Source of the DNA: Marsupella aquatica
Taxonomy: Eukaryota > Plantae > Marchantiophyta
DNA length: 64,000 nucleotides
Reading direction: 5' to 3'
Assembly: GCA_973895155.1 (NCBI GenBank)
Contig: OZ316892.1
Location: forward strand, 18,094,357 to 18,158,356
Of the stretch, positions 520-61,425 are shown piece after piece. The notes beneath the pieces are model-generated. The model was not told where the DNA came from, made no database searches, and saw only the letters and a list, made by a program, of their open reading frames with translations. Made by a program: the position numbers and the translations under genes. The first letter of the stretch is position 1; the number at the start of each line of letters is the position of its first letter.

Positions 520-521
520 AT

Positions 522-6369: not shown

Positions 6370-6549
6370 GGTTACTTAACATTTGTGTAGATACTGAGAT
6401 ATGCTCTTGCTCATTCCTTGTATAGGCTACGGCTTAGTTCTGGTCTACTCTCGTATAAAGAGGGAAAAACCGGTTTGGTTTTTCTTTCCAGAACTTCCCG
6501 CTGAGCAATCATATTCATAGCAGTCTTTACCCTCCCCTAGACCAAAGTC

Positions 6550-6559
6550 AAGGGGGAGA
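6550..6559 (+). other. Polypurine tract
   Basis: AAGGGGGAGA immediately before the 3' LTR. Confidence 0.9.
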
Positions 6560-6560
6560 T

Positions 6561-6905
6561 TGTTAGGATTTACTCTTAGGTCTAGAGTTACAATTGTACC
6601 GTAGTTAAGGCTAACCTTAGTTGTAGACTTGGTTAGGTTAGTCATGTTGTGCACACTCTATAACCAAGCGGTGTTTGCTTGGTGAGGGGGAACTCAGGCT
6701 CATTCTTACGGAGCTAGTTGAGAGATAGAGAGAGCTTGCGCTGTGGATGCTTGGTATGGCCGGTCGGCCTAGAGTGCAGTAAAGCTCATGTGTGTTCCCG
6801 TGGACGTAGCCTCATGTGGAGGTGAATCACGTATCTCTCTGTGTCGACTCTTGTGCGTTGGATGGTTCATGGGCTTGCCGTTACGATTATCGTCTATGCT
6901 CAACA
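6561..6905 (+). repeat. 3' LTR of copia element
   Basis: Direct repeat of 175-519, followed by TSD CATTG. Confidence 0.97.
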
Positions 6906-7680
6906 CATTGAAGTCATCATTACATACTCCACTCGTAGCCACAAATCCTGCGGGAAGTCCCAAACACCACGAACTGATTGAAATTTCTTTCTATTGAATG
7001 ACGAACTCCAAAGAAGGAGAAGTCTTCTAAGGAAATCAGGTTGACAAAAATTGGAGGGAGGATCATTAACAACTAAAGATACAACAATGAGCAGGACCAA
7101 TTGATAATGGATTCTACCCAGCCGAATCCCTTGACAGCGTAGCAATTTGAGAACAAAGATATGACTAGAAAAGCAACCCCCTAGGTTCTGGGATATCACA
7201 AAGAACAGCCACGGATTCAGAGAAATAAAAAAATTGAAGGACCACACGGTCAACCGACTGAAGGTAGCACAAATTGATGGGAGAACAATTGAGAGAAAGA
7301 AAAAGAATGGAGAATGGAGCCCACAGGCTGGTGACAAGACCGAAAAAGAAGAAACGATTGAGAGACAAACAAAGTTTGGGACCGAAGAGAAAGAAAACTT
7401 GAGGTGCGCTGACAAACAAATTCCTCAACAAAGCCAGCAAAAAAGTCAAGAAAAGACCGACTTAAACCACTAAGTGCAAACCCTCCTTAAATGCAAACTT
7501 GAATGATACATATTCCAATTTACAAAGAAAAATATGCACTTAACCAGGGAATACACTTAAAAACACACCTAAAGACTCAAAGATACTCAGAATTCCATTT
7601 CCTTTGAGAAAAGTACCACTCCAGCAAAGGCCCTTAATAAATCTCCTCCATAGAAACAAATAACCACTACATTTAACCAT

Positions 7681-20032: not shown

Positions 20033-21286
20033 TCAAGCTGGGCCTAGCCGGAGCTCGAGGTCTAGGATTCCAACATCATCTACGGTCCCTCTGATGCCCA
20101 TCGATTTGGAAAAGATGGACGAAGTGTGATGTTGGGGCCGTAGTTGAATGAGCTCTTGAGTGACGAGGGGAGCGGCCTGATCATGTGCGAATGGACTGGA
20201 TTGGTAAGGCTGGAAGGCCCCCAGTTGCAGCTTATGCGCAAAGCTGGCGGAATCGCCGGACACAGATCTGCTGCTACTTCTGTAAGGCGGGCTTCTTCCT
20301 CCTGCCCCTTCATGCTCTTGCGAGCCAGCTGAGCCGCTCTTGGTGATGACACTGGAGCCGGAGCTTCTGGAGCCCTGAGAAGCCGGGGAAGACATACGCG
20401 AGGTAGGGAACAATGAAGACGAGATTTGTACCCCGCTGTTCGCAGATATGCCACCTGCATTTTTGTTGTTTAGGTTGTTCTCGATGCCGGCGCTTTTGCT
20501 ATTGTTGTGGTTGTTGTACTGACCATGAGAAGGAGGAGAGGGCCCAGGACTTGATCTCGACGTGAACTGCGAGCTTCCGCCTGATGAGCTTGTCATGGTC
20601 AGGATAGCTCCACCGGGAGCCAAGCTGGAGTAGAAGAAAGCTCTTCTCTCGGGAGAAGCGGTAGCAGCAGCAATGGCTGCTGCTGGATTGACGCCCACTC
20701 CCATGGGCGAGTAGAGGCACCATTGAGCCTGGCCGTTGGGTCCTGCCACTGCGGCGAGCTGCTGTGGCGTAGCAACGGCTGCTGTAGCTGCGGCAGCGGC
20801 TTGCTGCGCAGTGCTTCTCAGGATGGCCATGTTGTTGGCCTGCGCTCGCTCCCGGCGATGTACATTCATGTGCCCTCCCAATGCTTGGGCGGTGCGGAAC
20901 TCTCTGCGGCAGAAGCTGCAGGCGTATGAGCGGGGTGGCCACTGCCCACTGCAGCTGGCCGAATCCTCGGCGAATGCTCGGACCTCCCAGGACGCATCGC
21001 CATCGGCAGCAGTCTGAGCTGTCGCTGCTGTTGGAGCAGCCTGACCGTGATGACTCAATTTCGAGACATCGCTGCCGCTCTGGTTGTTGTTGTTGTTGTT
21101 GTTGTTGTAGACGTCGTAGAGAGCCGGATCGCCCGGTGAAGAAGGCCGCCCTGCTGCAGCTCCTGCCCAGGCCATCACAGGAAAGACAATGGCACTCGCC
21201 TGCTGCTGCGCCTGCGAGTGCATTGTCTGCGACACCTGCTGCTCCTGCTTACACGGCTGCAGCTGCAGTAACTGCTGCGTGGCCAT
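20033..21286 (-). CDS. SUPERMAN/RABBIT EARS-like single C2H2 zinc-finger repressor with C-terminal EAR motif (417 aa, intronless)
   Basis: [33 protein letters not shown] (QALGGH finger) and C-terminal LDLELRLG. First ATG is at 21286; the ORF track's 21382 start is a TTG. Confidence 0.93.
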
Positions 21287-22911
21287 CTCCTCGATCTCCT
21301 GGCCTCGATTCTCTTCTCGCTCTCCTCTCTCTCTGTCTCTCCTCTCTCTCGATGTGCCTTTGACAAAGGTTTCTCCAGGCAATGCCAGCCGGGCCAGCCT
21401 GGGTGTTGCAATCCTTAACGTGTCTGGTGTAGTCAGTCAAGTTGTCCGATCCCAGTGCTCCGACTCGACCTGAATTGGACCAATCAGTTCGCTTCAAAAT
21501 TGATCAGATTGGTCCAGATCTACGCCTCAACATGAGCAGTCCGAGATATCTTCTTGTGCACCTCCAACCCAGTCCCAAATGTGTAGGATAACCGAATGAA
21601 TGGTGGCGTTCGTTTCAGAATTGATAGACAGTGTTCTCCTACAAGAAAGTCTAGATCATGTTTGGTTCCCTGCTGCTTCGTAGCACTTGAGTTCGATTTC
21701 AAGTGATAATTCTAGTACATCGCACGGGGATCCCAATTAATGTGCAAACTACAAACGCACGCACCGAGTTGTGTCACAAAATCCGTGCGGGAATCCGTGC
21801 AGCTCAGACCACTATTATCTCTTCCTGGAGCTCTAGAACATTGAAGTTCTAGAGGTGCACTCCAAAATTGAAGTCTGACGTGAACCTTGGGTATTTGTAT
21901 AGAGAAGTGAGTCGATCAATCTCACTCCTATGAGTGTTAAGATATATACGATTCTTGGCGTCTATAAGTAAGACTTGTACCACTTAGCTCCAGGTGGCTC
22001 CCAGCTAGTGTGGAGCAGCTAGCTTCTGAGCTCGCTTAGGCGTACTACGTCTGAGCTGAAGTAGAGCGAAGACTGGAATGATGCCATGACTTCTGTGTTT
22101 CCCGAGGAGGAAGATGGCAAGGCTTTGTAAGACTGAGCGGGGGAGAAGTTAATGAATGAAACAATTATTATATCCCCGTTGGGGACTCGCTAGATATAAT
22201 TAAAGCTTGTCCCGGAGTATAAGTCTGTGTGACCTCCGCAACACAAGCACTGGCAACGGCGTGGCTTCCTGGTACGTATGCTCAATTAAAATCTAGTGCC
22301 CGGCCTCAAAAGCCCCAAAAGGGATGGCGGCGCCAGGTTGAAATTGTTTTAGTAACCAGACGGATTCAATTGGAAAAGCTAGCGAGAAATTCTGTCACTC
22401 TTGAGCCGAGTTGCAGTGCGATCTGCTCACTGTTTACAATGGAGACAGGGAGTAACTAGCACTCAAGATTGGACCAGTGGATGATGGCTCGGCGACAGAC
22501 CGATAACCATTGTTCCAATCGCCGTGAGGTTGTTTTGCACTGACCACTGTCCACCCTCGTTATCATTCTCTCCTGTTTGTTTGCTCACCTCGTCCTCTTG
22601 TTAATAGCCCTACTCCCTTAAAACGCACGGAGCGGCGGCCGGCCTTCTCAATTTCCTCTCACTGTTCACTCTGTGGGCGGATACACCCACGCAAATCATA
22701 CAATTAGATAATGTTTTTATTTGTCGATCTCGAGCGATCGGTCGGTCGTTCCATCCAGTCTTCAGTCACAGTACTGCTAGGTTGCTTGCTCGCTCGAGAT
22801 CCGCGCGTGCGTGGGAGCTCTCGCAAGATTCTCATCACATTTTTATCTCTAATAAGCGCTTTGCGACGCTTTACGTATGACTACATCCAGTTCGGGCCTC
22901 GGCCATGTCCC

Positions 22912-27659: not shown

Positions 27660-28890
27660 CTAGCTATCGCAATACCTGTGCCTTGCACAAAAGATGATGT
27701 TGCGGAAAAGAAGTCATTGTTGCGGAAAAGAAGTCATCACGAAAAGTATGTCATTGCCTAAAAAAGATGTACATTGCTTTGCAAAAATATTTGAGGCGGA
27801 AAGATGTTACATAAAGGATATTGCGCAAAATATTTCATTCTGCAAATATTGTTGTATGAAAGATGTTGTGAATGAAATCATTGAGGCAAAGGAGTGTTGT
27901 GGAAGCAAGGTTATTATTTGAGCCCTATGCCCATGCCTTACACAATTATCATTGTGACTATGTCCATTGAGCTTGTGATTGGGTTGTCACTGCAGTTGTG
28001 CAATGGTTGTGAAAGTCATGCAGTTTTGTTTTAACCAGCCAGGTTGTCTTGTAGCCTTGACTGTGATTCTTGAGGAAGTGTTGTCATTCTCATGTCGATC
28101 ACTATGTCATTTGTGTCGTCATGTTGTGGTTGCGGAAGTGTCATTTTGGTTGGGTTCATGGTTATTGATGCAAGAGTGTTGAATGTCATTTTGGCCGATG
28201 TTGTTGTCAGTTGTGAATGTATATGATGTTGTTTGGGAGGGCAAGGGCATAGGGAAGTGCAGGATAGATGAGCACAGGGTGCACACAAATAGGCACCGGG
28301 CAGGCTCTGGACCCCCCTTGTTACTTCCTTTTCCCCACACGCACTCCTTCTTTCCATCCCACTCCCATTCCCCACTCCCCCCTGGCAGTCCCCCTCCCGG
28401 GGAAAGACAACAACTGCCTAAATTGGGTGCAAAATACTATCAATGTGAACTGTTAGGTTGACACGAAATATTGTAGGCAAAAATGTGTGTTGTGTGAAGG
28501 GGTTGCAAAGAAAATTAACTCCACAGGGAAGATAAAAAATAAATATTGAATCAAAAATGAAAAATCCATGCAAACAAAGAATATGTTTGGTGATGCAAAA
28601 AAATAAAATGGGAGACAAAGATAAATAAAGCTTAAATGAGGACCAAAAAGAAGCATTGTGCAAGGTTTCATCACCTTGCCACAACAACTCAAATGCACCA
28701 CTGTACAAACTAATGGAAAAAGAAAAGTTCACCTCACCTCCAAAAAACAGAAAGGTAAGAGGAGGGTGGACATTCACCATGGCCGGGCCATGAAAAGAAC
28801 ACGCACCCATCCCTCCAACATTTTAAATAAAAGAAAAATTCAGCCCCCTCAAATGCATTCTATTAATGTATGTAGCTATTTATAGAAGAA
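27660..28890 (-). mobile_element. Non-autonomous Helitron-like fragment (3' end at 27660)
   Basis: a|CTAG-ctatcgcaata-cctgtgccttgcac-aaaagatg is the reverse complement of a hairpin+CTAG 3' end. It is followed by the same AAAGATG-rich repeats as the 49871 element. Right boundary approximate. Confidence 0.55.
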
Positions 28891-40345: not shown

Positions 40346-42067
40346 TCAGTGCTTGGCAGGAACCTTGGGCTGTGAAGAAGCCTGTGACTGGTAAACCAAA
40401 GCACAAAATCATTCAGTCTCATGTAGCTCTGAAGAGAAACGTGAAGATCTTCCTTTGCAAAATTCTTTCAAGGCTGGAGGAGATGGCAACCTAGATTAAA
40501 TTGCCAGGTTGTTACCAACGCAACGTGGTCCAAACTAACAAAGAGTTCCAGAAACAGAAAATTTACCTTCAGAATGGCAAATTTGACCGATCCATAAACC
40601 ACACCAACGGTGGCTGCAGTCACACGCGCTACCTGCAGATTAATTATGTGGAACTCCAATCATTAGTTCATCACTGCAAGGAAAGCTAAGCGCAGCAACT
40701 TGCCAGACCCCAAACTGATAGAAGAAATTGTTTTCCCCTTTCAATGCAAATCTAATGTCTGGTTAGTCTGACAAAACTGTTAACCTCCAGGATCCATCCG
40801 CACTTTTGAAAGTCCCCGTACTTCGGAAAAAGGTTTGAACAGGTTGTAAAATGTGTTTCAAAATCGAAGTACACAGGTTTCGTACATTCTTTGAGTTCAG
40901 GAAGTGAATGCAATGTTGGTAAAACATCCCAAGAGGATGGTGCAGCTATGTAGAGGGTAATACAAGCCAGGTTTTACAAATTCTTCTTCGAGGTCTGCTA
41001 TTCCTGTACTTTAAACTGGTTTTGGCTATGCAGAGGGTATACCCTAAACCGTAGCACTAGAACATCGGTTTCAGCATCACAGACGAACTCACACCTACAA
41101 ACCCTACTGCTTCATCTAGTTTGATTGGGTATAGGTCTCGGCAGAAAAACACAAAAGATGCATCTAAAGGGTAATTAAATACCACAGTCGAACATCTTTG
41201 ACGAAAAATGGCCAGAAATCCAAAACTTCCATGTGAGAAGCTCACCGAAATATTTCGAACAAGCAAACCTAACATCCACCTTCCTGTCCTCTACATCGGC
41301 TAGGAATCTAAAATCGAATGACCGGATGAACCTCAAAAGACCCGCAGTATGAATCAAAATCGTGTAACTGACGGACGAGTCTGGAACACAAGGGTGCACC
41401 TCTACTGGCTGGCTCCCTCACTGGCTCGTCAGGTCGATCACCACTACAGGCACTGGTCAAAGGTGACCTTAGATAATGTGTTCATCTCGAAGAGAGCTTG
41501 GGTAGAGACTACAATAATCGTTATAACTATCTGCAAAGCTTCCGTTACTTCCGTTCAGGCTAAGGCAGGTGGATTGCAAGAAGGTTTGGGCTAACCCCTA
41601 CCAGCTAGGTTATCAGACCCTCACAAGCAACCTTCACCACTTTCAGCAAATCTATAAGTTTGGCCAGCTTCGACGACAAAGCAAACGACGATGCAGTCCG
41701 TGTTTATTAGTCTACGATGATATCACCATCCTCGAACCAGGACCACCGACATTGCAGAGCAAGTAGGCTTTAACAACAATTAGAGTATCAACAAACAAGC
41801 AGAACCTAGAAGTCTCAAGGTTCAGATCCATCGTAGAGAACAGCTATAGCACACAATACTTCAGCCGAAAAACATAGGCTGCGTCCCATCCCGGGCAGAG
41901 CCTTCAGAAAATGCTGGATGCTACAACACTGGAGTAAGTCGATTCCCAAGCTTAGCAGGAAGACGAAAGCTCCACATCAAAGTGAAAAGTTCAGAGAGAG
42001 AACGAGAGAGACAGAGACTCACTAGGGCCAGAGTGCTGGTGCCAGAATACGGGCCTCCACCCGCCAT
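40346..42067 (-). CDS. ATP5ME: Mitochondrial ATP synthase subunit e, 50 aa, 3 exons
   Basis: Exons 42067-42023, 40632-40567, 40387-40346 (GT-AG, all phase 0) give MAGGGPYSGTSTLALVARVTAATVGVVYGSVKFAILKSQASSQPKVPAKH*. GPYSGTSTLALVAR...G.VYGS.K is the plant subunit-e signature. Confidence 0.92.
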
Positions 42068-42243
42068 TGCGAAACTTCAGGCCGGCTGGCAAGCTTGCAA
42101 ACTGACTGCCGGTTCGGTCGGTCGGTCGGTAGATCGATTCGATTGATAATTCGGTGGCTGCCTCCGTCGCCCTCGTCCCTGCTCAAGAGCACCGCAGCCG
42201 AAGGAGCTCGCAAAGTGCAGACCTACCGCTCGACTCCGATGTT

Positions 42244-42295
42244 CCTTTCCTTTCCCTTCCTTTCCCTTCCCTTCCCTTCCCTTCCCTTCCCTCCT
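42244..42295. repeat. (CCCTT)n / (AAGGG)n microsatellite upstream of the subunit-e ATG
   Basis: Six consecutive CCC tracts with 2-nt spacers at 42264-42291. Confidence 0.9.
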
Positions 42296-42559
42296 CCGTC
42301 TCTCTTTTCTCTCTCACTCTCGTTTTGCCTCGCTTCGTCAATAATGTGCTCCAGCGGCTTTTCGACCAGCACGTCGCAAGTTCAACACTCCACCAAACAC
42401 TTCTGCTCCGATTATAAACGCTCTACATTGTTTTATGTGTTCAGTGCTCACGGTGGTTAGTGTTAGAGTCGAATCTTTATCCCTCTTTAGATCTCGCTTC
42501 ATCGATGATGTATTATTGTGCTCAAGCAGCTCTTAATGCTCTACATTGTTTGTGTGTTC

Positions 42560-43660
42560 ATAAAATAGATTTTTTCCCTTGAAACATTCAATTGAATTTC
42601 ATTCAAAGAGAGAGAGTCCAAAAGGGTGGCCCATGAAAGGGGGACAACATCCAAGGGAGGTCGACGTGCTAAAAGCCGGGGGAGCCGGCACCACAGCAGA
42701 AGAAAGGCCCCCAAAGGAAGGCAGCTAAACAAGACATTCAACTATTGTAGAAGGAGCAGCACACTCCGGAAGACCAGCCAGTGAAGAAGCCCTGGCAGGG
42801 GGCCATCCAGTGGGTCCTTGACAAGAATTACCCTCTCCACCTATCCACAGAACAAACTCCTAGTACCCTGAAAACAACCTACATACACTTCATGGAGGTA
42901 TGGGGGGCACAGGGGTCTTGTAGAATCTCCTCATGAACCTCCCAAATGCTGGTATAAGACCCATAGTCCAAAGACATGTCAGCAAAAATACCATTGGCAA
43001 TAGCCTTCCCAAGCCAAAGTCTACGTTTGTTACAGGGCCAATCCTTATGCATATAGACGAAAAGCCTTTGCCATGATTTTTGAATGACAGCATGGGGATC
43101 CTAGCTAGTGTGTCCAATGAAGTGTGAACTCCTATCCTTCCAGGAAAATGTGGGCCGGGTTCAGGACAGAATGAAACCGACCAGTGGGTGAGATAAGTTT
43201 CAAAATGTAGAGAACCCAGTTCCAAACTTGCTGAGAGATGGGGCAACTCCAAATGCAGTGAACAATGTCCTACTGAGCCCCAAGATGGCTGCAAGAGCAC
43301 CAGGTGATAGGGTTTGCTGCAAGGTAGGAAGAGAAACGCCAGTGTTGTGTAGCCGGGATACGGTAGACCATCTGCCATACGAAGCAGTTCTTGGAAGCAA
43401 CCCAGAATGGCAACCAAGTTTGGCGCCAGAGTGTCTGAGGGGACCACTTCTGCAACCCCCTATGCAAAATGCTTCTCTCCTGGCCCTGCATTTCTTGAAG
43501 ATGCGCCGTGCTGGTATCAAAAAAAGGTCTGTCGTCTTTCAAGCTGTACTGAGTAGCAGCCACCAAATCCCCACATGGCCGTCCTATGCATTGTCTGGCT
43601 CCTGCCCTCTGCGGTGTCCTAATCAGTAGGTAAGTTGGTGTAGAGATACAGATGAAGGAG
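42560..43660 (-). mobile_element. Degenerate LINE (L1-type) ORF2 3' fragment with zf-RVT motif
   Basis: LWRQTWLPF..SKNCFVWQMVYRIPATQHWRF...WCSCSHLGAQ*DIVHCIWSCPISQQVW; boundaries approximate. Confidence 0.75.
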
Positions 43661-46124
43661 GTTGAGACTTCTCCACAAGCAAAAGGAAGTCATTATACAC
43701 ACTGAAAGTTGTGCTTGCTATAAGGAGGGTTTAAACTAATTTTGCTATTGCAAAGCTCTGCCTGAGATTCTAATCTAACAAGTATTGTTGAGAATTCATA
43801 TTTTTCAAAGAGCGCTCCTCTTGTTACAAAGAGCACTTTGAGTTTTTCCATTGCACGAAACTCTAAGGAATCATGTTTTTCAACGAGCGTTGCTTTGGTT
43901 ACAATAAGCGCTTCAAGTACTTTGCCGTTGCAGAGGTACCAAAGATTTCAGATGCTAAATGTAAACCTTCAAGCCAGTCCATGCAGGTTTTTATTTCACT
44001 TTTAGATGCACTCAATCTCCTTCCTTTAACAAAAATGTAGGTAAACTGTCAATGAGAACTATTTTTATCTAGATACTCTCATGACTAGGTGTAAAGTGCT
44101 CAGTCTTCCTTTCAAATTCCATAGGGATGACTAGAGACAATGTACAAGTCCATCTAGGCTTCAGTGTCCACTCTCACATAAGCAAATAATGACATTTTTA
44201 CATGAACTAACAATAAACCGAGGTTGACAACGGAGATCACACCATTGTTAAAAATGAAACATGGTTGATACTCAAACATGGCATAAAATAACAGAGTTCA
44301 TTGTATTGAAGTGAAATAAATACCTACATTTGATATGTCCGTCTCAAATGCTCAATAAATTTTTCCTTAAAGATAGATCCTCTCCCCTCAAACACGTTTT
44401 CAATTAGGTTTGTGAAATGTGGGGGTCTATTGCTTCATCAGTTCTCAGTCTTTCTGCCCTTAGTTGTTTGTGAATCTCAGTTGAAATGGTCCTTTCCACC
44501 TCTGTGCATTTAAGCTGGACAGCTGAGATTGGCCCAATCTTGGTTGACCTCGTCGAGATAGGCATATGGACCAAAAACATCCACCTACAAAAATCTAAAA
44601 TTTTTGGCAAAAAAATTTCTCATTGTACTGTAAGGAGACAGCCCATCTCAGCTACTCTCACGAAGATGAGACAGTAGTACAGATGGTCCATAGTGGAAAC
44701 AAAATTAAATCCTTCTTAAAATTGGAAACAAAATTGGAGTTTTTCTGCTACATTTCAATGGCCTCTCTGAAATGACATGGCAACTGATATCAATGAGGTT
44801 AATTGATGGAAGTCACTGATAAATGATGAAGTAGTTATAATGACGCTTCCCCTAAAGATTTAATCATTGGGGTTTGAATTTACTAGTATTCAAAGTATGG
44901 TATCAAGACAACCGATTGTGGCGTTGTCATTAGATGCCCGCACTCCAATGTTATATTGAGCAAGAGCTTTTGGACCATGGCCACGAGTCAAAATAATTGT
45001 CACAGTAATAGGATTGAAGTTGAATTGCACCATCCACTTTTCTTTGGACAAAAGGACATCAATGGAAGTGCCCTCTTATAATGATCCATTTTATAATGAA
45101 TTCTGCATAGGACCTTTTTTGGATTATCAATAGACTGGCCTCTCCACGAGTGATACAATAATCTACCTTTGGTATGATAACAATGATGAGTTGTTTAATC
45201 CACAACTATAATAAGGGATCCCGCATTTTTTTGTCCTTTGTCCCAATACAAAAAAGTTCCTGGGTGGGAAAGATCCACAGCCATTGGATTTGTTTGGCTA
45301 TTTTCCCTGACCAGTGATGGGGAAAATGGGCACCCCTGGCGCATATGTGTTTCCCCACGCTTTCCCATAAAATGCCCCAGCCCTCCTTGCGCCGTGCAAT
45401 GCACAGGTATAGGGCTCGTTCCCCTTTAAAATCTCAATCTCTTCTTTAATGCTAATCAGATTTGTTTTCCATTGCATCAGCTCACTATAAGTTCTACACT
45501 TCAAAAAGTTATTGCCTCTTTGTGAATAGACACTACTCTTCTCGCGGTGCAATTTTCTCCTCTGCACAAAAGAAGACCACCACTAACAAGCCTTCCCCGG
45601 TGGGAATCAGGCTGCTTGTGTTGTTCACTATGAACCAAACAATCCGGAATTGGGAATCACACTTTTGTACACCTTGAAACTCTATGTTGTAAGACCACAA
45701 AGTCAATCATCCGCAACACATTGCTACAGTAAGATACACCCTCCACAGCCACACCCCCCGCCACGCCCTTTTGAATACTTGTGGCCCCACTTGTAAGTTG
45801 GGGCGTGAGGATGGGACCTCGGCCAAAGAAGGAGTGGAATATTTCCTCTAGAGCACTAGGACAGTTGGGGAGATGCAGAGACAACAACATCAAAGCGACA
45901 AGATGAAAGAGAGGAGAGACATTGATTTACAGAGGTGGTATGGACAAGGCCCGTCACAGGGGGTGGTGGTGGGGGGGTGGGTTGTTGTCTCAATCGTGGG
46001 GTGATTCTTATAGTAGCTAGCCTACCAGATCTTGCCACATAAGCAGATTTTATATTTCTTAAATTTGCACCATTTTTTGGGGTGTATTTGTACACAGGTA
46101 TAGGATGACAAGGCAGCAAGCGCA

Positions 46125-49100
46125 CGTACCCTAACTAATCTCAGCCATTGAAATTGACGGTCGGATTTTAGGCATGGGGAGTTGTCAATTTGGTCCATTT
46201 GATTGAGTCAATCAATGGCCACAATCCTTAACGTATGTTTAGGGCCACAATCCTTAATGGGGTATTTGAGCTTCCAGATGCCTCTCCGCATCGCGGGTCG
46301 GCATTCAGTCGCTCTAGTATCTCATTAAGAAGCAGGACGAGACCGTAAACACATACGTTAAGGTTGTTAGGGTGATATTTTGCTTTTTGGGGCTTTAGGC
46401 TGCTGCCACGTTAGCATTTTTGGCAGTGATTATATCTCATTAAAAAATGACCATATATTTATACGGTCTGCGATCTGACCACTTTTTCTCGAGGGGAAGA
46501 TGCATATGCGGAGTGTTTGGAACGGGGGTTACAAATTCAAAATCCAGATAAGTCTTGTAATGAAAGATGAAAATCCCATGGTAGGGATGAAAACTTTATT
46601 AAAGTAAACAAAAATTATGGACAAAGGAATCTCAATAAATGTTTGCCATGAACTACATACTAGGGCCTCATAGACCATCTACTACTATAGCTTCTTACAT
46701 CCAGCACAACAAATTTGTGCTTACCAGGCAGGCTATTTACACTATCCTTGTACCAGGCAGACTATCTACACTATCCTACTATCATCTGAATTCTGATCCA
46801 CGTCTACAATCTCAATTATTTAACTTTCCAATACTGATGTTCACTGTGCAATTGTTTAGTGAACCGATGTGTCCAAGAACTGCAGAAACAGGATTGATGT
46901 TCTGGACTCTTTGTTCATCCCACCAGGGTTCAAAGTTGTCCCAATCCTTCTGGTCAATCCCATTCAACAATGGATCTTCCTTGACACACTCGGACGGAAA
47001 AGGGTCTTCCTTCCTTGACTCGTTGTCAGAATCCTACACAGAAATTGCACGAGTTAATACCAGACACTAATAACACAGTCAAAAACCAATCATAAATACA
47101 GTTGCATGAAGTCTATTCAAACCTGCTCAGACTTCATCTCAGAGTCCTTGGCGATTGTAGCTCTTGACACAAGCTGTGTTTCATTGCTTGGAGCTGGAAC
47201 TGTTGGGATTGTTGGAACCACACTTGGGATTGGAAGAACCTTTGAGTTAAATGGCATATTTTTCTTCCTAACGATGTTGATCTCTAACGGTGCTTCATTT
47301 CATGCGCTACAATCTGCAAAATGCGCGCGTGAGAAATAGCTAACACCTCAAAAGCCTTCAAGGAAAAAAACAGACTATACAAAACATATTAACTTACCTA
47401 TGAATGCCCCCTCCACGTTCAGTTTTGACTTCTTTGTAGGCGAGTCATCATCGTCTGCTGCAGGAACTGTACCAACGATCACCTTATTCTTGAACAAGTC
47501 GGTCTCTTCCCTCACAGTTTCCTCATACACACTGCCATCTCAAGCGCAATGTTGTGCAGCTTGAACTTGAGCTTCAATTGATCTTTCATATCGGACGTAT
47601 GCTCCCTTGCTCTTGTGACCAGTGATTCGCATGCCAACATTAAGTGGAACTCCCTCCGAGCACATACGAGTTACACAAGTTGTTTGTCCAGACTTGTTTG
47701 TGATACTGTCAGTAACAAGGCCACATTCTCGGTGTATCTCCTTCATACACCCGGTTAGTTTCACGTGAAGTCGAGTACCAAGCATGGTTCTTAGGATTAT
47801 CAATGTCCGATTGATAAAACAGAAAGGTACCTGAGACTGGAAGATGATCAACCAAGGCGAGAAGTGTTGTCACCATATCCTGATCATGCTCAGTCACAAC
47901 AAGTCGGAAGTGTTCATCTTGGTAACGATCCAAAGACATTTTATAGTTCTTAGACAAGCGCTCATTGTAGCTTACAAACCTCCCTGAGTGCCTCATCAAC
48001 ACCAAACTTGAACTCTTCCTTGTCTAAGTTGTACAGTTATGCTCCTCCACGGATAGCAAATCGACACAATAGATAAAACACAGCTCGACGTTGCAGACCC
48101 CTTGGGTGTGAGACACTTGTGCAGGGGTGAGCAAGAATGGTGCGCTCGTCAGTGAGAGTGATGACAGTTGCCTTCTTGCGAGGCTGGTTGGCGCCTGCTC
48201 TTCGAGAGCGTTCCATGGCTAGCACACATGAAATGCCAACCTGCTTGAACATAGGACTAGTCCTCATGCAAAAATTTATAGGTTCATCCTTACCTGATTG
48301 CTGGATTCTGGCCTCTTGCTTTTGACGCATGATTCGATGGAATGCACAGTACAGGCCCATCAGAGTCTGGCTGGGGTAAAGAGCTCCATCTTTCTTTGTG
48401 ACTTGCTCAAAGAACTTTGTTAGAAGCATACTGCAATCGTGCATTGGTAGCTCCTCGAGCGGAACTGTGGTGTCGAAGTTCTTAAACAAGCGGAACTTAT
48501 TTAAGCAATTCACAGCCCATTTGTCGACAGGGGCTGATGCATTTGCTCCACCCTTGGCAAGGGTGCGCTGGAACGATACGTCTTTGTCTAGGAACTCAAA
48601 TGATGGCCGTCCTTGGACACTGACCACAGCTTGGCTTGGTGTTACTAGACTTGTTGCCTCTAACTTCACAGACTCAATGTCCGAATGCAGCGCATCGATG
48701 AGAGCTTGCATTTGCTCATCAAAATCCTGTCCACTAAACAAGTCCAAAAAAGCATGTTCAAGGCTTGGCGTGCCTGTATTGCTCGAACTACCAGGGAGCC
48801 ATGCAGTAGGCGCGTGAGGGATCTCCTTTCCACTCGAACATGTCTCCTTGCCACTGGAACTCAAGCTCGGGGCCATGGCATAAGCAGACAAACCAATGTT
48901 GAACGATGGGGAGCACATCAATCTCCTGTTTGAGGCATAAAGTGCACCATTGAATGTAACACGTTACTGAGGAGGTAACCTCTCGCTACTGCATCAGAAC
49001 TATGGCTTGATTGAGATAGCAACAAACATAACAGTAGAGAGGAGCGCAAACATCAGTTGTAATGCAAACAATAGACACGAAATAACCAACCAAAAGCCGG

Positions 49101-49860
49101 CGATCAATGGTTGGCATGGATGACCGAATTTGGGGCGATCAAAGAAGTCTGAGACGACCAGAGGTGCACATTGGCAGACCAACTGTGGCAAGATCGTAAA
49201 TCATGGAACGAACAATGTCAAAAGCGGGAAGTGAAATATCACCTTGGAAAAAATAGAAGCGGAAGTTTGAGATGCTCAAAATATCAAAAGCATTACAAGA
49301 TAGAATGCTTACCTGAACTTGGAGTGAGATAACAACATCACGTTCGTTATGGTCGACGCTTAACTGCTTCTCACGCTATTATGGCTCTCGTCTGAGCGGC
49401 ACCAGTGAGATAACAACACCACGTCAGTAAACAAAACTACAGCAACAAAACCTGTCGCAACACAAAAGAACCTGTCACAACAAAAACAGATGATGAGCAC
49501 ATCGATGATTAACATTGACCAGCCATAACACAAGCAACAAGCATGATCACGGTCATGATTCACATCGACCAGCCGCACATCCAACACAGGAAAGCAGCTC
49601 CACAGCGATGGCGAAGCAGCCGCGAGTAGCAGAAAAGTAAAACAAGCAGCAGCAGCAGTGCCGAACGACGGGACCGCCGGCAGCGGGACGATTCAAACAA
49701 ATAGAATACAATTGACACTTAGATACTCCCTACGAGGTAATACCTCCGAATCCCTAACATTGCGGCTGTTTTGGGCTGTAGATTTTAAATGGATGATCCA
49801 TGACCGTCAATGAAAGACAACTTGTCGGCTGGATACTCCAATCCTTAGAGAACACTGATA
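46125..49860 (-). mobile_element. Putative extent of Crypton-like element
   Basis: Recombinase pseudogene plus motif-rich flanks: inverted ATTGACGGTC at ~46153 and ~49802-49811, direct CAATCCTTA at 46222/46248 and 49839. Ends not proven. Confidence 0.4.
46812..48876 (-). pseudogene. Crypton-like tyrosine recombinase (DUF3504/ZMYM-KCTD1-type), intron-containing, decayed
   Basis: LTKFFEQVTKKDGALYPSQTL; CRFAIRGG (catalytic R); YNERLSKN (K); WYS; MKEIHRECGL..ITNKSGQTT; GVP..ITGHKS..YVRY (H, Y); C-terminal LNNCTVNI. GT-AG introns 47397-47314 and 47122-47034 keep the frame. Stops at 48037, 47540 and ~47300; two frameshifts near 47990 and 47765. Confidence 0.85.
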
Positions 49861-49870
49861 TATCAATCTA

Positions 49871-52130
49871 CTAGCTCAATACCCGTGCGTTGCACAAAAG
49901 ATGTCGTCACGGCCAAGATGTCATTGAGAACAAAAGATATCATGTCGGCCAAGAGGTTGTTGAGAAGAAAGATGTCGTGTTGCCCAAGATGTTGTTGAGA
50001 ACAAAAGATGTCATGTCGGCCAAAATTTCGGTGATAACAAAAGATGTCGTGTCGGCCAAGAGGTCGTTCAGAACAAAAGATGTCGTGTCGACCAAGATGT
50101 CATGTCGGCCATGAATTGGTTGAGAAAAAAGATGTCGTGTCGACCAAGAGATTGTTGAGAAAAAATGTTGTATTGGCCAAGAGGTCGTTGAGAAAATCGA
50201 TGTCGTGTTGGCCAAGATCTCATTGATAAAAAAGACGTTGTATCGGCCAAGAAGTCATTGAGACAAAGGATGTCGTGTTGGCAAAGAAGTCGTTGAGAAA
50301 AAATATGTCATGTTGGCCAAGACGTTGTTGAGAGAAAAGATGTTGTGTCGGGCAAGACGTCACTAAGAAAAAAGATGTTGTGTCGGCCAAGACGTCATTG
50401 AGAAAACAGATGGCCAAGATGTCGTTGAGGAAAAATACCCGTGCATTACACAAAAGATTTTGTGTCGCCCAAAATGTAAAAGATGTCATTATGTGAAAGA
50501 TGGCGTTAAGAAAAAGTTGTCATTTTGCCAAACTAAGTTATTGTGAAGTAAATGATGTTATAAGTAAAAAGGTGTTGTTCACCCAATATGTCCTTAATAT
50601 GTGAAAGATAGCTCAATACCCGGGCGTTGCACAAAAGATGTTGTTAAGAAAAAATATGTTGTTTCGCCAAAGATTTAGTTAAGAAAAAATATGTTGTGTT
50701 GCCAAAGATTTTGTTAAGAAAAAATATGTTGTGTTGCCAAAGATTTCGTTAAGAAAAAAGATGTCATGTTGCCAAAGACGTCGTTAAGAAAAAAGATGTC
50801 ATGTTGCCAAAGATGTCGTTAATATGTGAAAGATGTTGTGAAGTAAGAAGATGTCATTAAGAACTATGATGTCGTGTTGCCAAAGGTGTCGTGAAGAAAA
50901 AATGTTCTTATGTGAAAAATGTAGTGAAGTAAAAAGATGTCGATGCGCCAAAGATGTCTTTATGTCTAAGATGTTGTCAGGTAAAAGATGATGTTTCACC
51001 AAAGATGTTATTAAGTATTTTTTGTTAAGTACAAAATGGTCGATAAGTAAAGGATGTCGTTAGACAAAGATGTAAGTTGTGAAGTAAAAGATGTTCTTAA
51101 GTACAATTGAAAATATTGCTAGTAAACCATGTTAAGTTAAATAAAAAAGTTGTTAAGTTGTTGCCACTTTTTTGCCACCCCTTGCATCCTGAAGCCCCAT
51201 TGATAACCCCAACGTTTTTGTTACGTTATTAAGCTTTTTGCTGAAAGTTACCATCATTGGCCGCTTACTTAAAACTTCTTACTTAAAGTTGCCGCAATAG
51301 CTTAATTGGCGTTGTCTGCCCCGATGTCGAGACCCCCTAGGGTAACGGCGCTGCTTGGCTGACTTTTCAATGGCCCTTTCCCTGCACTTGCATATATCTT
51401 GGAACCTCATCAGTAACCCCAATTTTTTGGTTACTTTAAGCTTAGTTTGATTAAAGTTGACTACGGCCGCTTTCTTGGCTTTGGCCGCCCCAACGCCAAT
51501 TCCCCTTGAGGCAACGACACGACTCAGCCCACTTTTCAACAAAACAATTTGCCTACCCCTTGCATGGAACCCCTTTGCTAACCTCATCCAAGTTTACTCG
51601 GCTCCTTAGTCGCCAATACCATGCCCCCTTGGGATAGTGGTGTGGTTTGCAACACTTTCCAATATTGGAGGACCTGCCACCCCCAGATATTTTGGCCCCC
51701 ACCCCATGCCTCTTCCTGTGGTAAACAAAGTGGCAAGACATAACAACAACTGAGGGGTTGTTGGGGAGTTGGAACCCGGGGCAAGATTGAGTTAGGGTTG
51801 GAGATGGGACTTTGGGGTCCCGGGTTTAAAACATTAATTTTTTGTTTTTAGCCAATGTGGCAAATGTCAGCCTCTCAAAGGTAGGAGATGCTAGGAGTAT
51901 TCTTCCACAATTTTTCTTGAATTATATCCTATTCGTCAGATATCACCTAGATTTACATACAACCGTTAGATTTTGGCAAATGAGGTCCATGATTTGGTGG
52001 GAGAGTGGCCAATGGTATGCAAAAAATCTAACAAATTTTTGGCAAAAGTGGCGGAAAAAGTGGTGAACACATTTTGGGGAGGTAGAATTTGGCAAAAGCT
52101 TGCACCAAAAAAATACATTTATTGGATAGA
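49871..52130 (-). mobile_element. Non-autonomous Helitron carrying a tandem array
   Basis: Minus strand reads ...GTGCAACGCACGGG-TATTGAG-CTAG|T at 49871, a canonical hairpin+CTAG end. Candidate 5' end TCTATCCAATA at 52130 lacks the expected flanking base, so it is uncertain. Confidence 0.65.
49897..51160. repeat. Minisatellite, 35-36-bp unit (AAAGATGTCGTGTCGGCCAAGAGGTCGTTGAGAA..) built of two ~18-bp AAGATGTC subunits
   Basis: Unit starts at 49934, 49969, 50005, 50041, 50077 and onward; a second block from ~50635; decays rightwards. Confidence 0.93.
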
Positions 52131-52225
52131 GGCTAGGGCCAGGGTCGTGTCAGGAGTTATCATCCCTTCCTCTATTGGATAGAGGCTAGGGCCAGGGTAG
52201 TGTCAGGAGTTATCATCCCTTCCTC
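52120..52225. repeat. Tandem duplication 2 x 53 bp
   Basis: tattggatagaggctagggccagggt(c/a)gtgtcaggagttatcatcccttcctc at 52120-52172 and 52173-52225; one mismatch. Confidence 0.97.
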
Positions 52226-52693
52226 TTCACTCTCCCTCTTCTGTAGTTGTTGTTGCTTAAAAGTTCTCATTAAATGCCAGGAGCCCTTATGAGCTCACAT
52301 AGGCTAGCAAGAGAGAACTTTAAACTCCAAAGGGAAAGAAGTTACGCTCCTCCCTTTCTCTTAAAAGTAAGTTGTACTCTGCTGGTACAACTGTACCTCT
52401 CTAGAGTACCTCTATCCCTTTTGTACCTTGTACCTGGGCTCCCAAGAGTAATGAGCTCATATTCTGTACCAAAAAATACAATAGTACCTGTCTTGTGCAT
52501 CTTTGTGTACCTGGTTTGTGCACACCATGTGCACACGCGGCCCTGTACCAGGTTTTTTCATGTTCCTTTTATTTTTTCCCTTATTGGTTTCATATTTACA
52601 GGTTTCAATTATTATTATCCAAAAGGACACTCCAAATTTGAATGAAGACCACTCCATTTTTTGGCACAATTGTGTATTATAGTTTAGGATATG

Positions 52694-52825
52694 ACCTTTA
52701 AGTATACGGACCAAGGTTATCCTTTAATGAAATATAAAGACGACCATATATATGCCCGACCATATACTATGGCCTTTATATGCCATTAAGGGATAACCCC
52801 GGTCCTTAACCGTATAGATTAAGGT
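52694..52825. repeat. ~130-bp foldback (imperfect inverted repeat)
   Basis: Nested pairs tatacgg/ccgtata, ggttatcctttaatg/cattaagggataacc, tataaag/ctttata, ccata/tatgg, tatatg/catata around loop cccgac. Confidence 0.85.
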
Positions 52826-52920
52826 GGCGGGGACAAGGTCCCAACTCCCAAGGGGTTTGTTTCATAATTAAGGGCTCATCAAGTGTTTGCTTGGTTAGAG
52901 TCGACGGTTAATTAAAGGAA

Positions 52921-55163
<2,243 letters not shown>

Positions 55164-55994
55164 GTGGTAAATGGAGAAATACATGTCTTTGTGATGGTTT
55201 CCAGCAGCAATACCTCCAATTCGAGCACGGTCTGACAAGAAACCATTTGTACTCGATATAAATCACGCTATTTACAATGATTTTAAACTTCCGATTGAAA
55301 ACACTGTAAAGGTTCACCTGGTTCGGCTCTCAAGCATTGTGAAGAACTAGATTTATACACTCAATTGCAATGAGGATAAAGTTAATATGCAGTACCCACA
55401 GCGCGCGAATGGGAAGAACGGCCTTCTACTAACGTGGACAGCAAATTTAGGATTGTCGTGAAGTTGGATCCTTAAAGTGGGGTGTAATTGAGACTTTTTG
55501 AGTTGATGATGTACGGCCGCCTAGTTGACATTAAAGCCCTCATCAATTCTGTGCAACGCTTCTACTTCAGGTGAATTTGTTGTTACATGGGGTAGTAGAC
55601 TACTAGTAGTGTATGGATGATTGTGTGGAGGATGTTCGTTTTCCTCCAATACCGGTAATTGAAGGATAGGGAATTTACAACCCTGGTGGAAGTCATGTGA
55701 GCTGTGGCAAAACTCAGGTTCTCATCTTATGTCATCCAGGCGCTAACATCAATAATACCCTCATCCAATATACTATTTGTGGGGTTTGCATATTGACATT
55801 TTGACCAGTACAGGTTAAGTCATCAATTATTGTTCAATATGTATGCAGTGACGAGAGGATGTGTGTAGAGAGAAGCTGTTGCAGAAAAGATGATGTTGCA
55901 AATAGATAGATATTGTATAGAAGGTGCACTTTAGTGAAAGATATCAGTTCATCATAATGGCTCGTTACTCAACTGTCGAGGCCTCAGCAGCAAA

Positions 55995-56545
55995 ATAGAG
56001 CATCTTTGGGCCAAAAAATTGCCACAATTTGTGGTTTTTTTCAATCTCAATTTTCACTCACAAGATGAGAAGACGGTTTAGACTTTCATCTCAGCCTAAA
56101 AATGACATCACCTTGGACAGCCTATCTGGGAGGCCTAAGCCCTTTGTGCTGCTGGCCAGGGAGCTTGAGGGCCCACTGTTGACTTGTTGTTTTCACTGCT
56201 GCACTCGACAACAGACATTGGGTCAGTAGCAAGGGATGAAGGGGGAGGGTGAAGAAATAACCCACGGGTAATGGCACCTCACCATTGGTTAGAGCAGCAG
56301 GAAGCTCTAACCAATGGGAACAGAAGTTTTGTAACCATGGTTGAGTTACTGGTAACCCATATACCAAATGGGGGACGGGGTAGGATAGCAAATAATTTTG
56401 TTGGGGGACAGGTAAATAAATTAGGGGAGGGGACAGGTTAATAAACAGCTTGTAATTTGGCATAAAGGTTATCATAGACCAAAGGTTATGATGTAAAAGA
56501 TATCATTGTATGGTATGTTGTTCTGTTTGGGTTTCATTGAGTAAA
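55995..56545. repeat. Inner inverted repeat, left copy (contains MULE-like TIR)
   Basis: Reverse complement of ~58565-59072, e.g. taaccatggttgagttactggtaaccca / tgggttaccagtaactcaaccatggtta; clearly more diverged than the RPS14 arms. Confidence 0.88.
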
Positions 56546-57299
56546 TGGTATTGTTGAGATGTGATTATTGGCTGTCAATATGCAAAAGAAGTCAAAGCAT
56601 AAGAGAGCTGATAAAGATGTCAATGTATAAAAAAGGTGGTACCAAAAATATCATTGCAACTGTATAATTTATTTAATAAAGTGCAATCGAATGCTATTTC
56701 TTGGGCTTAGTCTCTAGAGTGAAGCCTTTAGACCATAACTCTAAGTGTGGTCATAAGTGAAAATGAGTTGTAAACATGGATGGGGACAAAGATGAACAGG
56801 AAATAAGGAAGAATCCTTCTTTTGCAAGGTTTCTTTTGTCTCCTCATCTTTACTTACTTTCAAGGAACATGTATTAGGCTACTAGTTTAGTAAATAATAA
56901 CTCTTTTAAAATTATTTTGGCACGAAAGATGTGAGTGATTAAGATACTGCCATTGTTTTGTCACTAACTTGTCATCCACATGGCACTTCCCACTTGGAAG
57001 ATAACTCCTTCCAGTCTGTGTAGGGTTTTAGATTTCTGTTTAGGGAGCTCCAAGGTTGTTGGAGTGAATCACGGAGGTTGCAGTTTTGGGGGTCACTCTA
57101 CAAAAAATGGCCAATGGGAAGGCATCCAGCGCCTTTTGGTTTGCGGTTCCGCCCCCTGTCGTACCGGGCGGCTTGGTTTTTGAGAAGCTTTAACCTGCAA
57201 TAGCCTGTTTGGTGACTAACGTTTTGCACTGTTCTATGTTGCTTTGAGGGAGCTTCGACGGAAAATGTCCCATTCAATTTTATTTTCTCATCTCACAGC

Positions 57300-58575
57300 C
57301 TGAGCTTTTTCTCATCACAATCGCAGCCAGGAAACGTGGTTCTCAAGAATGACAAGGCTGCAAGTGAATTTCTTGATCATGGATGTCACTTGTAGAGATT
57401 GTGTGCCCATTGGATTGAGTTTTGGTCGCAAGCTGGAAGGGAAATCATTTTTCAGAAGCGCTTGTGATTTGCAAGGCGCAATTTGAGTTCCAGATTTTGT
57501 CAGGCTCTTTTCCCAAGCAGCTCCCACTGGAGCAAATCAACCTGTATCCTATGCTCGGCAGTGCTACGTTTCCATAGATTCCTGAATGATTTTGCTGCTA
57601 TTAATGTTTCTCCTGCAAATAATAAATACAAATTGACAGGATCAGTGGATTCATTTCATTACAGAACAATGGCTGCATCTCCTGCAAACTCTGCAACTTT
57701 TAAAGCCATGAGCAGCGGATTTTCATCACCAATGTCTGGGGTATTCAACACACTTTCTCTCAGGTTCCTTCCATACCACCCACTCCTGTCAATGAGTCCC
57801 AACCTGCCACTCAGTGGTAAGCCACTTCAGTGGGGGTTCCAAGTCAAGTAACTAGCACACAACCGCAGAGATGGACAATGGCAAAAATGATGAGTACAAG
57901 TGGAGCCTTCTTGACACCCCACCTGAGAGGATTAAATCTGCAAATGCCTGGTGGAAGATTGTCACTAAAGGCTTGCTCAAGCATGGCTTCAACAGGAAGC
58001 ACTGAAGAAATGGGAGAAGCTGATGACCGATTTGAAGAAAAGAAAAAAACTCCCAGAGAAAGCCTTCCTCTACCAAGCTTGGTTATTTTGAGAAGGGGTC
58101 TGAAGAAAGGAAACGTTTCATCCTCCCGCCACAATCTGACAGTGAGGTATACAAACTAATGGAATGTTGGGTCCCCTGGTAGACAAGCTGGTCAACCTGA
58201 CCCTGAGCAATTGACGGATAGTTCCTTACTTGAAATGGAAGGGTACTCATTGTCAAACTCAGGGGGTTCTAGTCCAACTGCAAGTGCAGCCAATACACAA
58301 CCACCACCAGGTGCAGGGGGTATTCAAGCAGATAACACTGCTAGTCCACAATCAGCAGATGGTGAAGCAATGCCCAGACCACCAACAAATGGTGAGCTGG
58401 ATCAGCTGCTCATTGGAGAGGAGAATCCAGAGTCCAATGCAATCCCAGATCACCCTGCTGCACAAGGACGCTTGTTAAGTCTTTTGCACCTCTTTTATGC
58501 TTTCAGCTCTTTACTAACCATTTACTTCTTTTGCGTATTGACCCCTCTTAGGCAACAATACCGCTTACTCAATGA
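57300..58575 (+). pseudogene. Unidentified degenerate coding-like segment in the palindrome spacer
   Basis: Chain of plus-strand ORF pieces (57483, 57830, 58211) with S/P/Q-rich composition and a plausible gtaagt...ttag intron at ~58475-58551; no recognisable domain. Confidence 0.3.
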
Positions 58576-58652
58576 AGCCTAAACATTACAACATACCATA
58601 TAATGACATTTTTTTCACAAAAACTTCGTTCTGTGATAACCTTTATGCCAAA

Positions 58653-59157
58653 CAGCTTTTTACTAGTGTCATCCAAACACACTAATTTATTTACCTGTCC
58701 CTGAAACTAAATTATTTGCTTCCAAACTGTCCCACAATCGTGTGTGGGTTACCAGTAACTCAACCATGGTTACAGAACTTTTGTTCCCATTGTTTAGAGC
58801 TTCGTGCTGCCACTTGGTATGGTGACAGTAGCTGTGGGTTATCCCTTTGCCCTCCTCCTTCTTCCCTCGGTACTGGCCAATTGTCTATTGTCAAGGGAAA
58901 ACAAGCATTCAACAATGAGCCCAGCACAAAAAGGGCTCAGGATCGACTGATAAAGGTTATGTCATTTTTGGGTTGAGATGAATGTCTAAACATTCATCTA
59001 ATTTTGTGAGTAAAATGTGTTTCCGAAAAAACCACGATTTTTTGCAAATTTTTGGCCCAAAAGATGATCTTTTAGTGGTCCCAAGTCCTACAACCTTGGA
59101 ATATAGGGAACAGGTTAGTAAATTTGGGTAATAGAGGGACAGGTCAGTAAAATGCTG
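58653..59157. mobile_element. MULE-like MITE related to the 36172 element
   Basis: Begins CAGCTTTTTACTAG and ends GGGACAGGTCAGTAAAATGCTG, matching the termini of 36172-36739; no clean TSD. Confidence 0.65.
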
Positions 59158-59159
59158 TT

Positions 59160-61425
<2,266 letters not shown>

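Follow-up and report, generated by a model that had tools for sequence, protein, structure and literature searches.

Cryptons are DNA transposons that carry a tyrosine recombinase (YR) gene. As far as published descriptions go, they lack terminal inverted repeats as well as long direct repeats; terminal direct repeats of 4-6 bp are reported for CryptonF and CryptonS, and none were found in CryptonA or CryptonI. In the model of Goodwin et al., as summarized in PMC3212892, the element is excised as a circle and reinserted, and parts of PMC9977147 support this model for a CryptonF of Chlamydomonas. Here we analyze a YR gene in 64,000 nucleotides of the genome of the liverwort Marsupella aquatica (contig OZ316892.1 of assembly GCA_973895155.1, positions 18,094,357 to 18,158,356). 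We refer to this whole stretch as the window and count positions from its first letter. We read the locus as the probable remains of a DNA transposon of Crypton type, whose lineage belongs to seed-free plants and has Lys-x-x-Arg in place of His-x-x-Arg. We observed or computed the anatomy of the gene, its lesions, the other copies, the Cre-like fold predicted for an unbroken relative, the lack of reverse transcriptase (RT), RNase H, or gag nearby, and the family-wide lysine.

A first-pass annotation of the window had described Cryptons as known from fungi, animals, and stramenopiles and not as a standard land-plant superfamily. For the green lineage as a whole this needs correction, as a CryptonF was already known from the green alga Chlamydomonas (PMC9977147); for land plants, and for the Lys-type lineage, the novelty stands. 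Table 1 of Kojima and Jurka 2011 lists no plant host (PMC3212892). A 2026 paper on the Glomhoppers, which are CryptonA elements of Glomeromycota, places DUF3504 in Opisthokonta, and its main text mentions no liverwort, Marchantia, Streptophyta, or Viridiplantae (PMC13465315). The relevant part of a review of plant genomes calls Cryptons rare and does not name plant hosts (PMC11630846), and the main text of a 2025 paper on the bryophyte pangenome mentions no Crypton, recombinase, or DUF3504 (PMC12513842). We found no paper that describes land-plant Cryptons, in a search of the published literature that took in few subscription journals, no supplements, and neither Repbase nor Dfam. The window locus is a real but dead relic, and it marks a little-described, Lys-type branch of Crypton-like recombinase transposons in seed-free plants.

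A broken tyrosine-recombinase gene

The YR pseudogene runs from 48918 to 46812 on the minus strand (Table 1). The motifs that had first drawn attention to it are all present on that strand, in the order claimed: KKDGALYPSQTL, FAIRGG, ERLSKN, TNKSGQTT, TGHKS, VRY, and LNNCTVNI. Our first protein search returned a 556-aa protein and an unbroken 642-aa protein from Calypogeia fissa (CAM6083274.1, hereafter P0001). With tblastn, P0001 matches the window in three collinear pieces with 52%, 63%, and 68% identity (E=1e-140). Of the 186 proteins that we fetched, 179 match the window, and all matches but one lie within the YR stretch. Because of these results, we exclude a chance match. The ordered chain of motifs occurs once in the window and in none of 60 shuffles, although this test is lenient, as the pattern was drawn from the observation itself.

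The first methionine of P0186 aligns (at 67% identity) to an ATG at 48918, so the gene probably begins there. This is 42 nt upstream of 48876, where the first-pass annotation had placed the edge.

The gene has three internal stops, two frameshifts, and a change of Arg-II to Gln. In exon 1, the lesions are a TAA at 48036-48034, which sits at the conserved Glu after RGG; a frameshift near 47990; a frameshift and short deletion near 47762; a TGA at 47542-47540; and the Gln codon at Arg-II. The third stop is in exon 2. The Gln codon (CAA) had been noticed as one transition away from CGA, and comparison with the nearest proteins bears out that it is a lesion of the window copy. Judging from its sequence, this copy cannot encode a working enzyme.

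The reading frame of exon 1 ends at a stop at 47375, and the conserved tail lies in a different frame. Once the two predicted introns are removed, the tail is in frame, and P0108 and P0002 can be aligned to the product at both of its ends. Exon 3 itself is matched by P0108 (59% identity, E=3e-8) and by P0002 (42%, E=5e-6), and similar tails are found in both plant and His-type relatives. The introns are thus predicted from the frame and from the tails of relatives. Two frame-preserving introns of about 85 bp had been proposed earlier; at 84 and 89 nt they do keep the frame, but the in-frame TGA in exon 2 had been missed.

Fold, family, and the lysine at His-II

In an AlphaFold2 model of P0001, the core has a predicted local distance difference test score (pLDDT) above 90. 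The best structural match to this model is Cre (Foldseek E=2e-7; VIA Z 18.9, with a root-mean-square deviation of 4.8 over 292 aligned residues). Behind Cre come XerA, XerH, the Tn1549 integrase, QRICH1 (Z 12.6), and topoisomerase IB (Z 11-12). Together with the tblastn result, this bears out the identification as a tyrosine recombinase.

A profile from mixed Lys-type and His-type sequences aligns N-K-S-L-R of the family with H-x-x-R of XerA and of a Staphylococcus integrase, so the lysine column is the His-II position. This column is covered by 87 of 152 proteins, with Lys in 62, His in 18, Arg in 5, and Glu and Tyr in 1 each. Ahead of the first His-type match rank 61 proteins, of which 54 have Lys, none have His, and 53 retain Arg-II (we chose this cut after the fact). 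The guess that the lysine is specific to the family was correct. Conversely, the R-H-R-Y tetrad of active CryptonA members is not found here: Lys replaces His across the family, and the window copy has Gln for Arg-II. The residues R, K, K-x-x-R, H, and Y are all retained in seven unbroken relatives (P0001, P0002, P0003, P0008, P0011, P0012, and P0068), which argues for selection on catalysis, and the window's own seven-member subfamily mostly retains the catalytic set.

The consequences for activity are less obvious. In Cre, Lys is among five substitutions of His289 that left no detectable recombination (Gibb et al., PMC2943603). The same source, in the part consulted, notes that poxvirus topoisomerase IB has a lysine (Lys220) at this place, which contacts the +1 phosphate. 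If the site of the plant enzymes is Cre-like, the inactivity of Cre H289K argues against their activity; if they are active, it makes the family interesting. Because Cre H289K is inactive and yet Adiantum has near-identical copies on three sequences (see below), the active site of the Lys-type enzymes is likely rearranged relative to Cre.

Standard domain models barely detect this family. On the open reading frame (ORF) pieces of the window, Pfam gives a faint match to Phage_integrase (E=0.02) and no match to DUF3504. (Other weak matches on single ORF pieces, to PAS_4, Gallidermin, WDR11, and CstF, we dismissed as noise.) The unbroken P0001 and P0002 score 12.7 and 15.9 bits against a DUF3504 cut-off of 29.7, and both are also under the Phage_integrase cut-off. 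That cut-off for DUF3504 is passed by 1 of the 21 other Lys-side proteins scanned (P0068, 31.7 bits), as compared to 18 of 18 His-type proteins. Of the checks that the first-pass annotation had proposed, the hidden Markov models for these domains gave nothing above cut-off for the window pieces, P0001, or P0002, and the structure search succeeded.

Kinship to DUF3504 is nevertheless borne out by wider comparisons. The nearest ESM Atlas clusters to P0001 are DUF3504/Phage_integrase proteins of molluscs and cnidarians (score 0.98, template modeling (TM) score up to 0.82). With a profile built from six relatives, we retrieved 1843 representatives at E up to 0.001, and among the best 150 of these, the longer matches from about 1e-22 down are His-type. 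This six-sequence profile had no meaningful sequence match in the PDB, but the wider mixed profile did, to chain 9hjt of QRICH1 (E=4e-20). In P0001 to P0006, we found no Pfam match to GCR1_C, the domain of CryptonF, and no match to DUF3435, of Starship captains, at E up to 1.

On a 40-row tree, a 100/100 branch splits 23 Lys-side rows from 17 His-type rows, and the window pairs with P0001 (98/88). Our trees left out proteins that cover fewer than 170 core profile columns, and an earlier tree also left out the 10 shortest of the 53 that passed; the 40-row tree additionally dropped P0009, P0013, P0070, P0123, and P0147 and added P0172. Its His-type rows carry no species names. The tree that had been suggested thus places the window with P0001 in a Lys branch (100/100), but CryptonF, CryptonI, CryptonS, DIRS/Ngaro, and named Glomhoppers are not among its rows. 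Membership in DUF3504, as first proposed, holds as kinship, and not as membership proper: the Lys-type family forms a separate branch beside or within the CryptonA-like His-type DUF3504 proteins, with either position compatible with this unrooted tree.

Copies, flanks, and rival explanations

Among 26 proteins that we looked up, 17 carry a species name, and all 17 are from seed-free land plants. The named hosts are Calypogeia, Riccia, Marchantia, Ceratodon, Selaginella, Diphasiastrum, and two species of Adiantum (that is, liverworts, a moss, clubmosses, and ferns). The 26 look-ups behind this host range were drawn from the best 150 of the 1843 profile matches, and the true range may be wider, seed plants and algae included. 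A third word-index protein search added one new protein only. Two metagenome scans (with A2 and with P0155) and one viral scan (with P0144) found no loci. For P0001, tblastn gave no match in phages and, outside them, one weak match to a Microcystis plasmid integrase at E=0.06.

To look for other copies, we used the contigs of four sequencing runs from two studies, one of which may be the source of the window itself. These include exact-match contigs for the window locus as well as distinct contigs of 80-90% identity, which overlie the coding region and leader in all four runs, with up to six at one site. Two of the divergent contigs are found in both X1 and X3 (two of the runs), identical in length and in their differences and at a depth like that of the single-copy locus, so we view them as paralogs and not contaminants. 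One other copy lacks the stop at 47542, and some copies carry deletions. Two indels between copies are 3 nt long and match one-residue gaps relative to related proteins. Among 40 differences that were selected by support out of 925, 31 are coding. Third codon positions account for 18 of these (p=0.004), and 15 of the 31 leave the amino acid unchanged; several are CG versus CA or TG. (One of the listed differences is CAA versus CGA at 47562, which is not the Arg-II codon itself.) With the lesions, these contigs confirm the earlier idea of a decayed copy from a multi-copy family.

In the fern Adiantum capillus-veneris, the gene models P0007, P0153, and P0154 share 98.6-98.7% identity, and each is on a different chromosome-scale sequence (166, 178, and 161 Mb). 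Such near-identical, dispersed copies are consistent with recent transposition.

These copies bear on the possibility that the locus is a pseudogene of a domesticated host family (a plant counterpart of ZMYM/KCTD1/QRICH1), with the lysine reflecting lost or changed catalysis and the copies being ordinary duplicates. Some members of the same branch do look domesticated (the Marchantia gene MPTK1_5g04240 and clubmoss PAXX fusions that lack Arg-I, His-III, and Tyr), and the predicted introns and spliced leader are host-like. However, intron-bearing copies of Crypton type have been described in fungi (in part of PMC13465315). The window locus is also broken and multi-copy, unlike a domesticated gene, which would be intact and conserved, have few copies, and have lost its catalytic residues. 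The largely retained catalytic set of its subfamily, the several 80-90% copies with deletions, and the dispersed copies in Adiantum all argue against domestication, which we consider very unlikely as the origin of this locus.

It seems even less plausible that the YR gene is one frame of a DIRS- or Ngaro-type retrotransposon that lost its gag and RT. In one relative (P0042), RVT_1 is found in the same gene model, but RT is absent from 20 of the 21 Lys-side proteins scanned. Within the window, a Pfam search in six frames of 42000-46500 and 49000-58500, and in the gene's own ORFs, gave no match to RT, RNase H, or gag (a decayed RT could fall below detection); a motif scan of the flanks found none of these either. 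The sole RT detected in the window is in a copia element 40 kb away. These results uphold the original argument against DIRS. Also, spliceosomal introns would not survive reverse transcription. Finally, the family profile leads to DUF3504 proteins, and Kojima and Jurka report that the DUF3504 match seen with CryptonA YRs is missing from DIRS/Ngaro YRs (PMC3212892, in the part consulted).

The surroundings of the gene raise a third possibility, which is that it is a passenger or module of a larger element, such as a hairpin-bearing large transposon or a Helitron capture, and was copied by another enzyme. Related hairpins of about 130 bp, with CCTTAA...TTAAGG-like arms, are found on both sides, at 46226-46363 and 52696-52824 (folding z about -3 and -6 to -9); they may be a MITE-like family (miniature inverted-repeat transposable elements) or element termini. 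The first has z of about -3.3 on both strands, and the hairpins that we tested fold about equally well on either strand. The repeat zone at 45996-46600 has about ten times the depth of the coding region, and two contigs join it to YR sequence; it could be either the element's downstream end or separate insertions. And if Cre H289K is a guide, the recombinase might not move anything. On the other hand, the YR gene is outside the Helitron-like 3' end at 49870, and in the scanned flanks there is no Pfam match to a transposase or other cargo except for a ribosomal S11 gene. Also, the catalytic residues are conserved from liverworts to ferns, and a mere passenger would not need them. We consider a passenger unlikely, and we prefer the reading of the locus as a dead Crypton-type transposon.

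The Helitron-like end belongs to a very high-copy element that runs from 49870 to at least 52500. It contains 35-bp tandem arrays, and dozens of contigs per run show its sharp edge at 49869/49870. The end of its minus strand has a short inverted repeat rich in GC and a CTAG before T, features of a Helitron 3' end. A similar piece of 56 bp lies at 27664-27719. One other copy of the YR element, in one contig, loses homology at 49822, which is 48 bp short of this edge.

We found no long repeats between the flanks of the YR gene, and no mirror copy of an end-to-end junction longer than 16 bp between 45900-46820 and 49000-54000, and these searches do not define the element's ends. We treat a direct repeat of 9 bp, with copies at 49817-49809 and 46567-46559, as a lead only; the zones that contain it were picked after the fact. 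An Rfam search of 44000-54000 found nothing.

Several points weigh against a Crypton-type transposon. Where the element ends is not defined, and the contigs of the four runs showed neither an empty site nor a circle. The nearest relatives fall below the DUF3504 cut-off, and the 40-row tree has no CryptonF, CryptonS, CryptonI, DIRS, or Starship outgroup. As Cre H289K is inactive, the activity of Lys-type enzymes is inferred from copy patterns only. In Adiantum, the gene models P0007 and P0153 skip the G-H...Y segment, and segmental duplication, or carriage by another element, might also have produced the near-identical copies. The excess of third-position differences is in 31 coding rows among 40 of 925, picked by support.

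If the locus is nevertheless a dead Crypton-type transposon, its intact ancestor would have been transcribed and then spliced by the host. The recombinase would bind both ends of the element, join them via 3'-phosphotyrosine intermediates, and free a DNA circle, which would recombine into a short matching target. The chemistry would be performed by Arg-I, Lys, Arg-II, His-III, and Tyr, with the extra lysine perhaps turned to a neighboring phosphate, like its counterpart in poxvirus topoisomerase IB. Once inserted, the copy would have decayed, partly by CG-to-TG/CA changes, and the Helitron-like element would have come to lie beside or inside its upstream end.

Table 1. Features of the YR locus and the adjoining repeat zone, in window coordinates.
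Feature	Position	Strand	Evidence
Likely 5' leader and upstream part of element	48919..49822	-	candidate 70-nt GT-AG intron at 49312-49243; loss of homology in one other copy (one contig) at 49822
Exon 1: acidic N-terminal leader, core-binding and catalytic domains	47398..48918	-	tblastn with P0001; P0186; Cre-like model of P0001
Arg-I (IRGG), intact	48049..48051	-	family alignment
Catalytic Lys (SKN), intact	47949..47951	-	K300 of P0001; nearly invariant in alignment
Lys at His-II position (N-K-S-G-x)	47693..47695	-	family trait, not a lesion of the window copy
Arg-II position, CAA (Gln), lesion of the window copy	47684..47686	-	Arg in 53/61 nearest proteins
His-III (TGHKS), intact	47615..47617	-	family alignment
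Catalytic Tyr (AYVRY), intact	47588..47590	-	family alignment
Predicted intron 1, 84 nt, GTAAGT...TTGCAG, phase 1	47314..47397	-	sequence and frame
Predicted exon 2: variable linker of low complexity, interrupted in frame by TGA at 47302-47300	47123..47313	-	splice signals and frame; no tblastn match covers exon 2
Predicted intron 2, 89 nt, GTTTGA...GTGTAG (donor GTTTGA), phase 0	47034..47122	-	sequence and frame
Exon 3: family-conserved tail NP-x-x-AVLG-x-I-x-x-x-x-NCTVNI and stop	46812..47033	-	tblastn with P0108 and P0002
Likely 3' untranslated part, AATAAA at 46600-46595	46560..46811	-	a contig in two runs joins 46607 to 46811
Higher-copy repeat zone with 138-bp hairpin (46226-46363, 13-bp perfect arms)	45996..46600		depth; loose ends; joints 46421>48515 and 46458>47711 (one contig each)

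The window also contains other repeats and genes. A small high-copy repeat at 45198-45517 has a sharp left edge at 45198. Further away, a 2.2-kb inverted duplication (52921-55150 and 59189-61425, 95% identity) encloses an inner inverted pair of 72% identity (55994-56611 and 58503-59073), and in its left arm lie the spliced exons of an RPS14-like gene of the ribosomal protein S11 family. The Ty1/copia retrotransposon, at 175-6910, has 350-bp long terminal repeats that are 96% identical, and its gag and RT frames are broken; it is unrelated to the YR gene. On the minus strand, an intact-looking gene at 20033-21436 encodes a single C2H2 zinc finger and ends in LDLELRL, presumably a SUPERMAN-like EAR repressor motif.

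Probable domesticated relatives and comparison with known systems

Some clubmoss proteins join a PAXX-like head to a partial YR. These are P0047 and P0056 from Selaginella (LOC9653486 and LOC9657615; there are two paralogous pairs in Selaginella), P0030 from Diphasiastrum (O6H91_21G046100), and P0080/P0177 from Logan contigs. The fusions are 42-48% identical between species and form a 100/100 group on the 40-row tree. Their N-terminal ~190 residues match Arabidopsis PAXX (PDB 8p26), with a profile E of 8e-12 and a top Foldseek E of 2e-7 (target TM 0.80, from a model with a mean pLDDT of 54.7). The head and a coiled coil are followed by a catalytically dead YR that is cut off before Lys-x-x-Arg and has no Arg-I, His-III, or Tyr. 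The fusion is likely a lycophyte domestication. We found no literature on PAXX in Selaginella.

A candidate for a second domestication is MPTK1_5g04240 of Marchantia polymorpha and its counterpart Mapa_012797 of M. paleacea (P0015 and P0158), which are 94.5% identical and have a degenerate catalytic C-terminus. UniRef labels MPTK1_5g04240 as a DUF3504 domain-containing protein.

In a broader scenario, seed-free land plants would harbor an old Crypton lineage of their own, which predates the split between bryophytes and vascular plants, is still mobile in ferns and liverworts, has a topoisomerase-IB-like Lys-x-x-Arg site, and was domesticated at least twice (the clubmoss fusion to PAXX, an end-joining factor, and the Marchantia gene). 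We propose this tentatively, as a possibility that somewhat more speaks against than for. If it is true, then the plant domestications would parallel the origin of ZMYM/KCTD1/QRICH1 in animals.

The family extends the DUF3504-related Cryptons, which are known from animals and fungi, to liverworts, a moss, lycophytes, and ferns, and standard Pfam screens mostly miss it. It also offers a natural recombinase with a Cre fold and Lys at His-II, so that why recombinases keep His-II, and topoisomerase IB does not, becomes testable. And it hints at cases in which plants domesticated the recombinase of a transposon, one of them a fusion to a DNA-repair scaffold.

In sequence and structure, the nearest neighbors of the plant family are the CryptonA/DUF3504 elements of animals (PMC3212892, in the part consulted). 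Both have a single YR gene, with no RT or GCR1_C; they share K-x-x-G-x-x-Y-P, RGG-x-E, SKN, TN-x-S-x-R, TGH-x-S, and Y, and their NC-x-V/I-N tails are similar. The plant family differs in having Lys at His-II, in forming its own 100/100 branch, and in falling mostly under the DUF3504 cut-off. The Glomhoppers, as far as described in the consulted part of PMC13465315, are also DUF3504-related YR elements, many of them truncated or intron-bearing, and their mobility is inferred; however, they keep the R-H-R-Y tetrad, whereas the plant family has Lys. CryptonF-1_cRei of Chlamydomonas is another YR DNA transposon of the green lineage, which inserts at a short matching target and is excised cleanly (PMC9977147, in the part consulted), but it belongs to the CryptonF group, and the plant relatives scanned (P0001 to P0006) have no GCR1_C match.

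Among the enzymes, Cre resembles the plant recombinases in the two-domain fold predicted for P0001 (Z of 18.9, versus 11-12 for topoisomerase IB), while topoisomerase IB resembles them in having a lysine (Lys220) three residues before Arg-II. Cre does not tolerate Lys at His289 (PMC2943603, in the part consulted); the plant lysine may point away from the scissile phosphate. Lastly, ZMYM2-4, KCTD1, and QRICH1 have a homologous domain (as in the match to 9hjt), and plant parallels to these domesticated genes appear to exist. In contrast to them, the window locus is broken and multi-copy, and its subfamily retains the catalytic residues.

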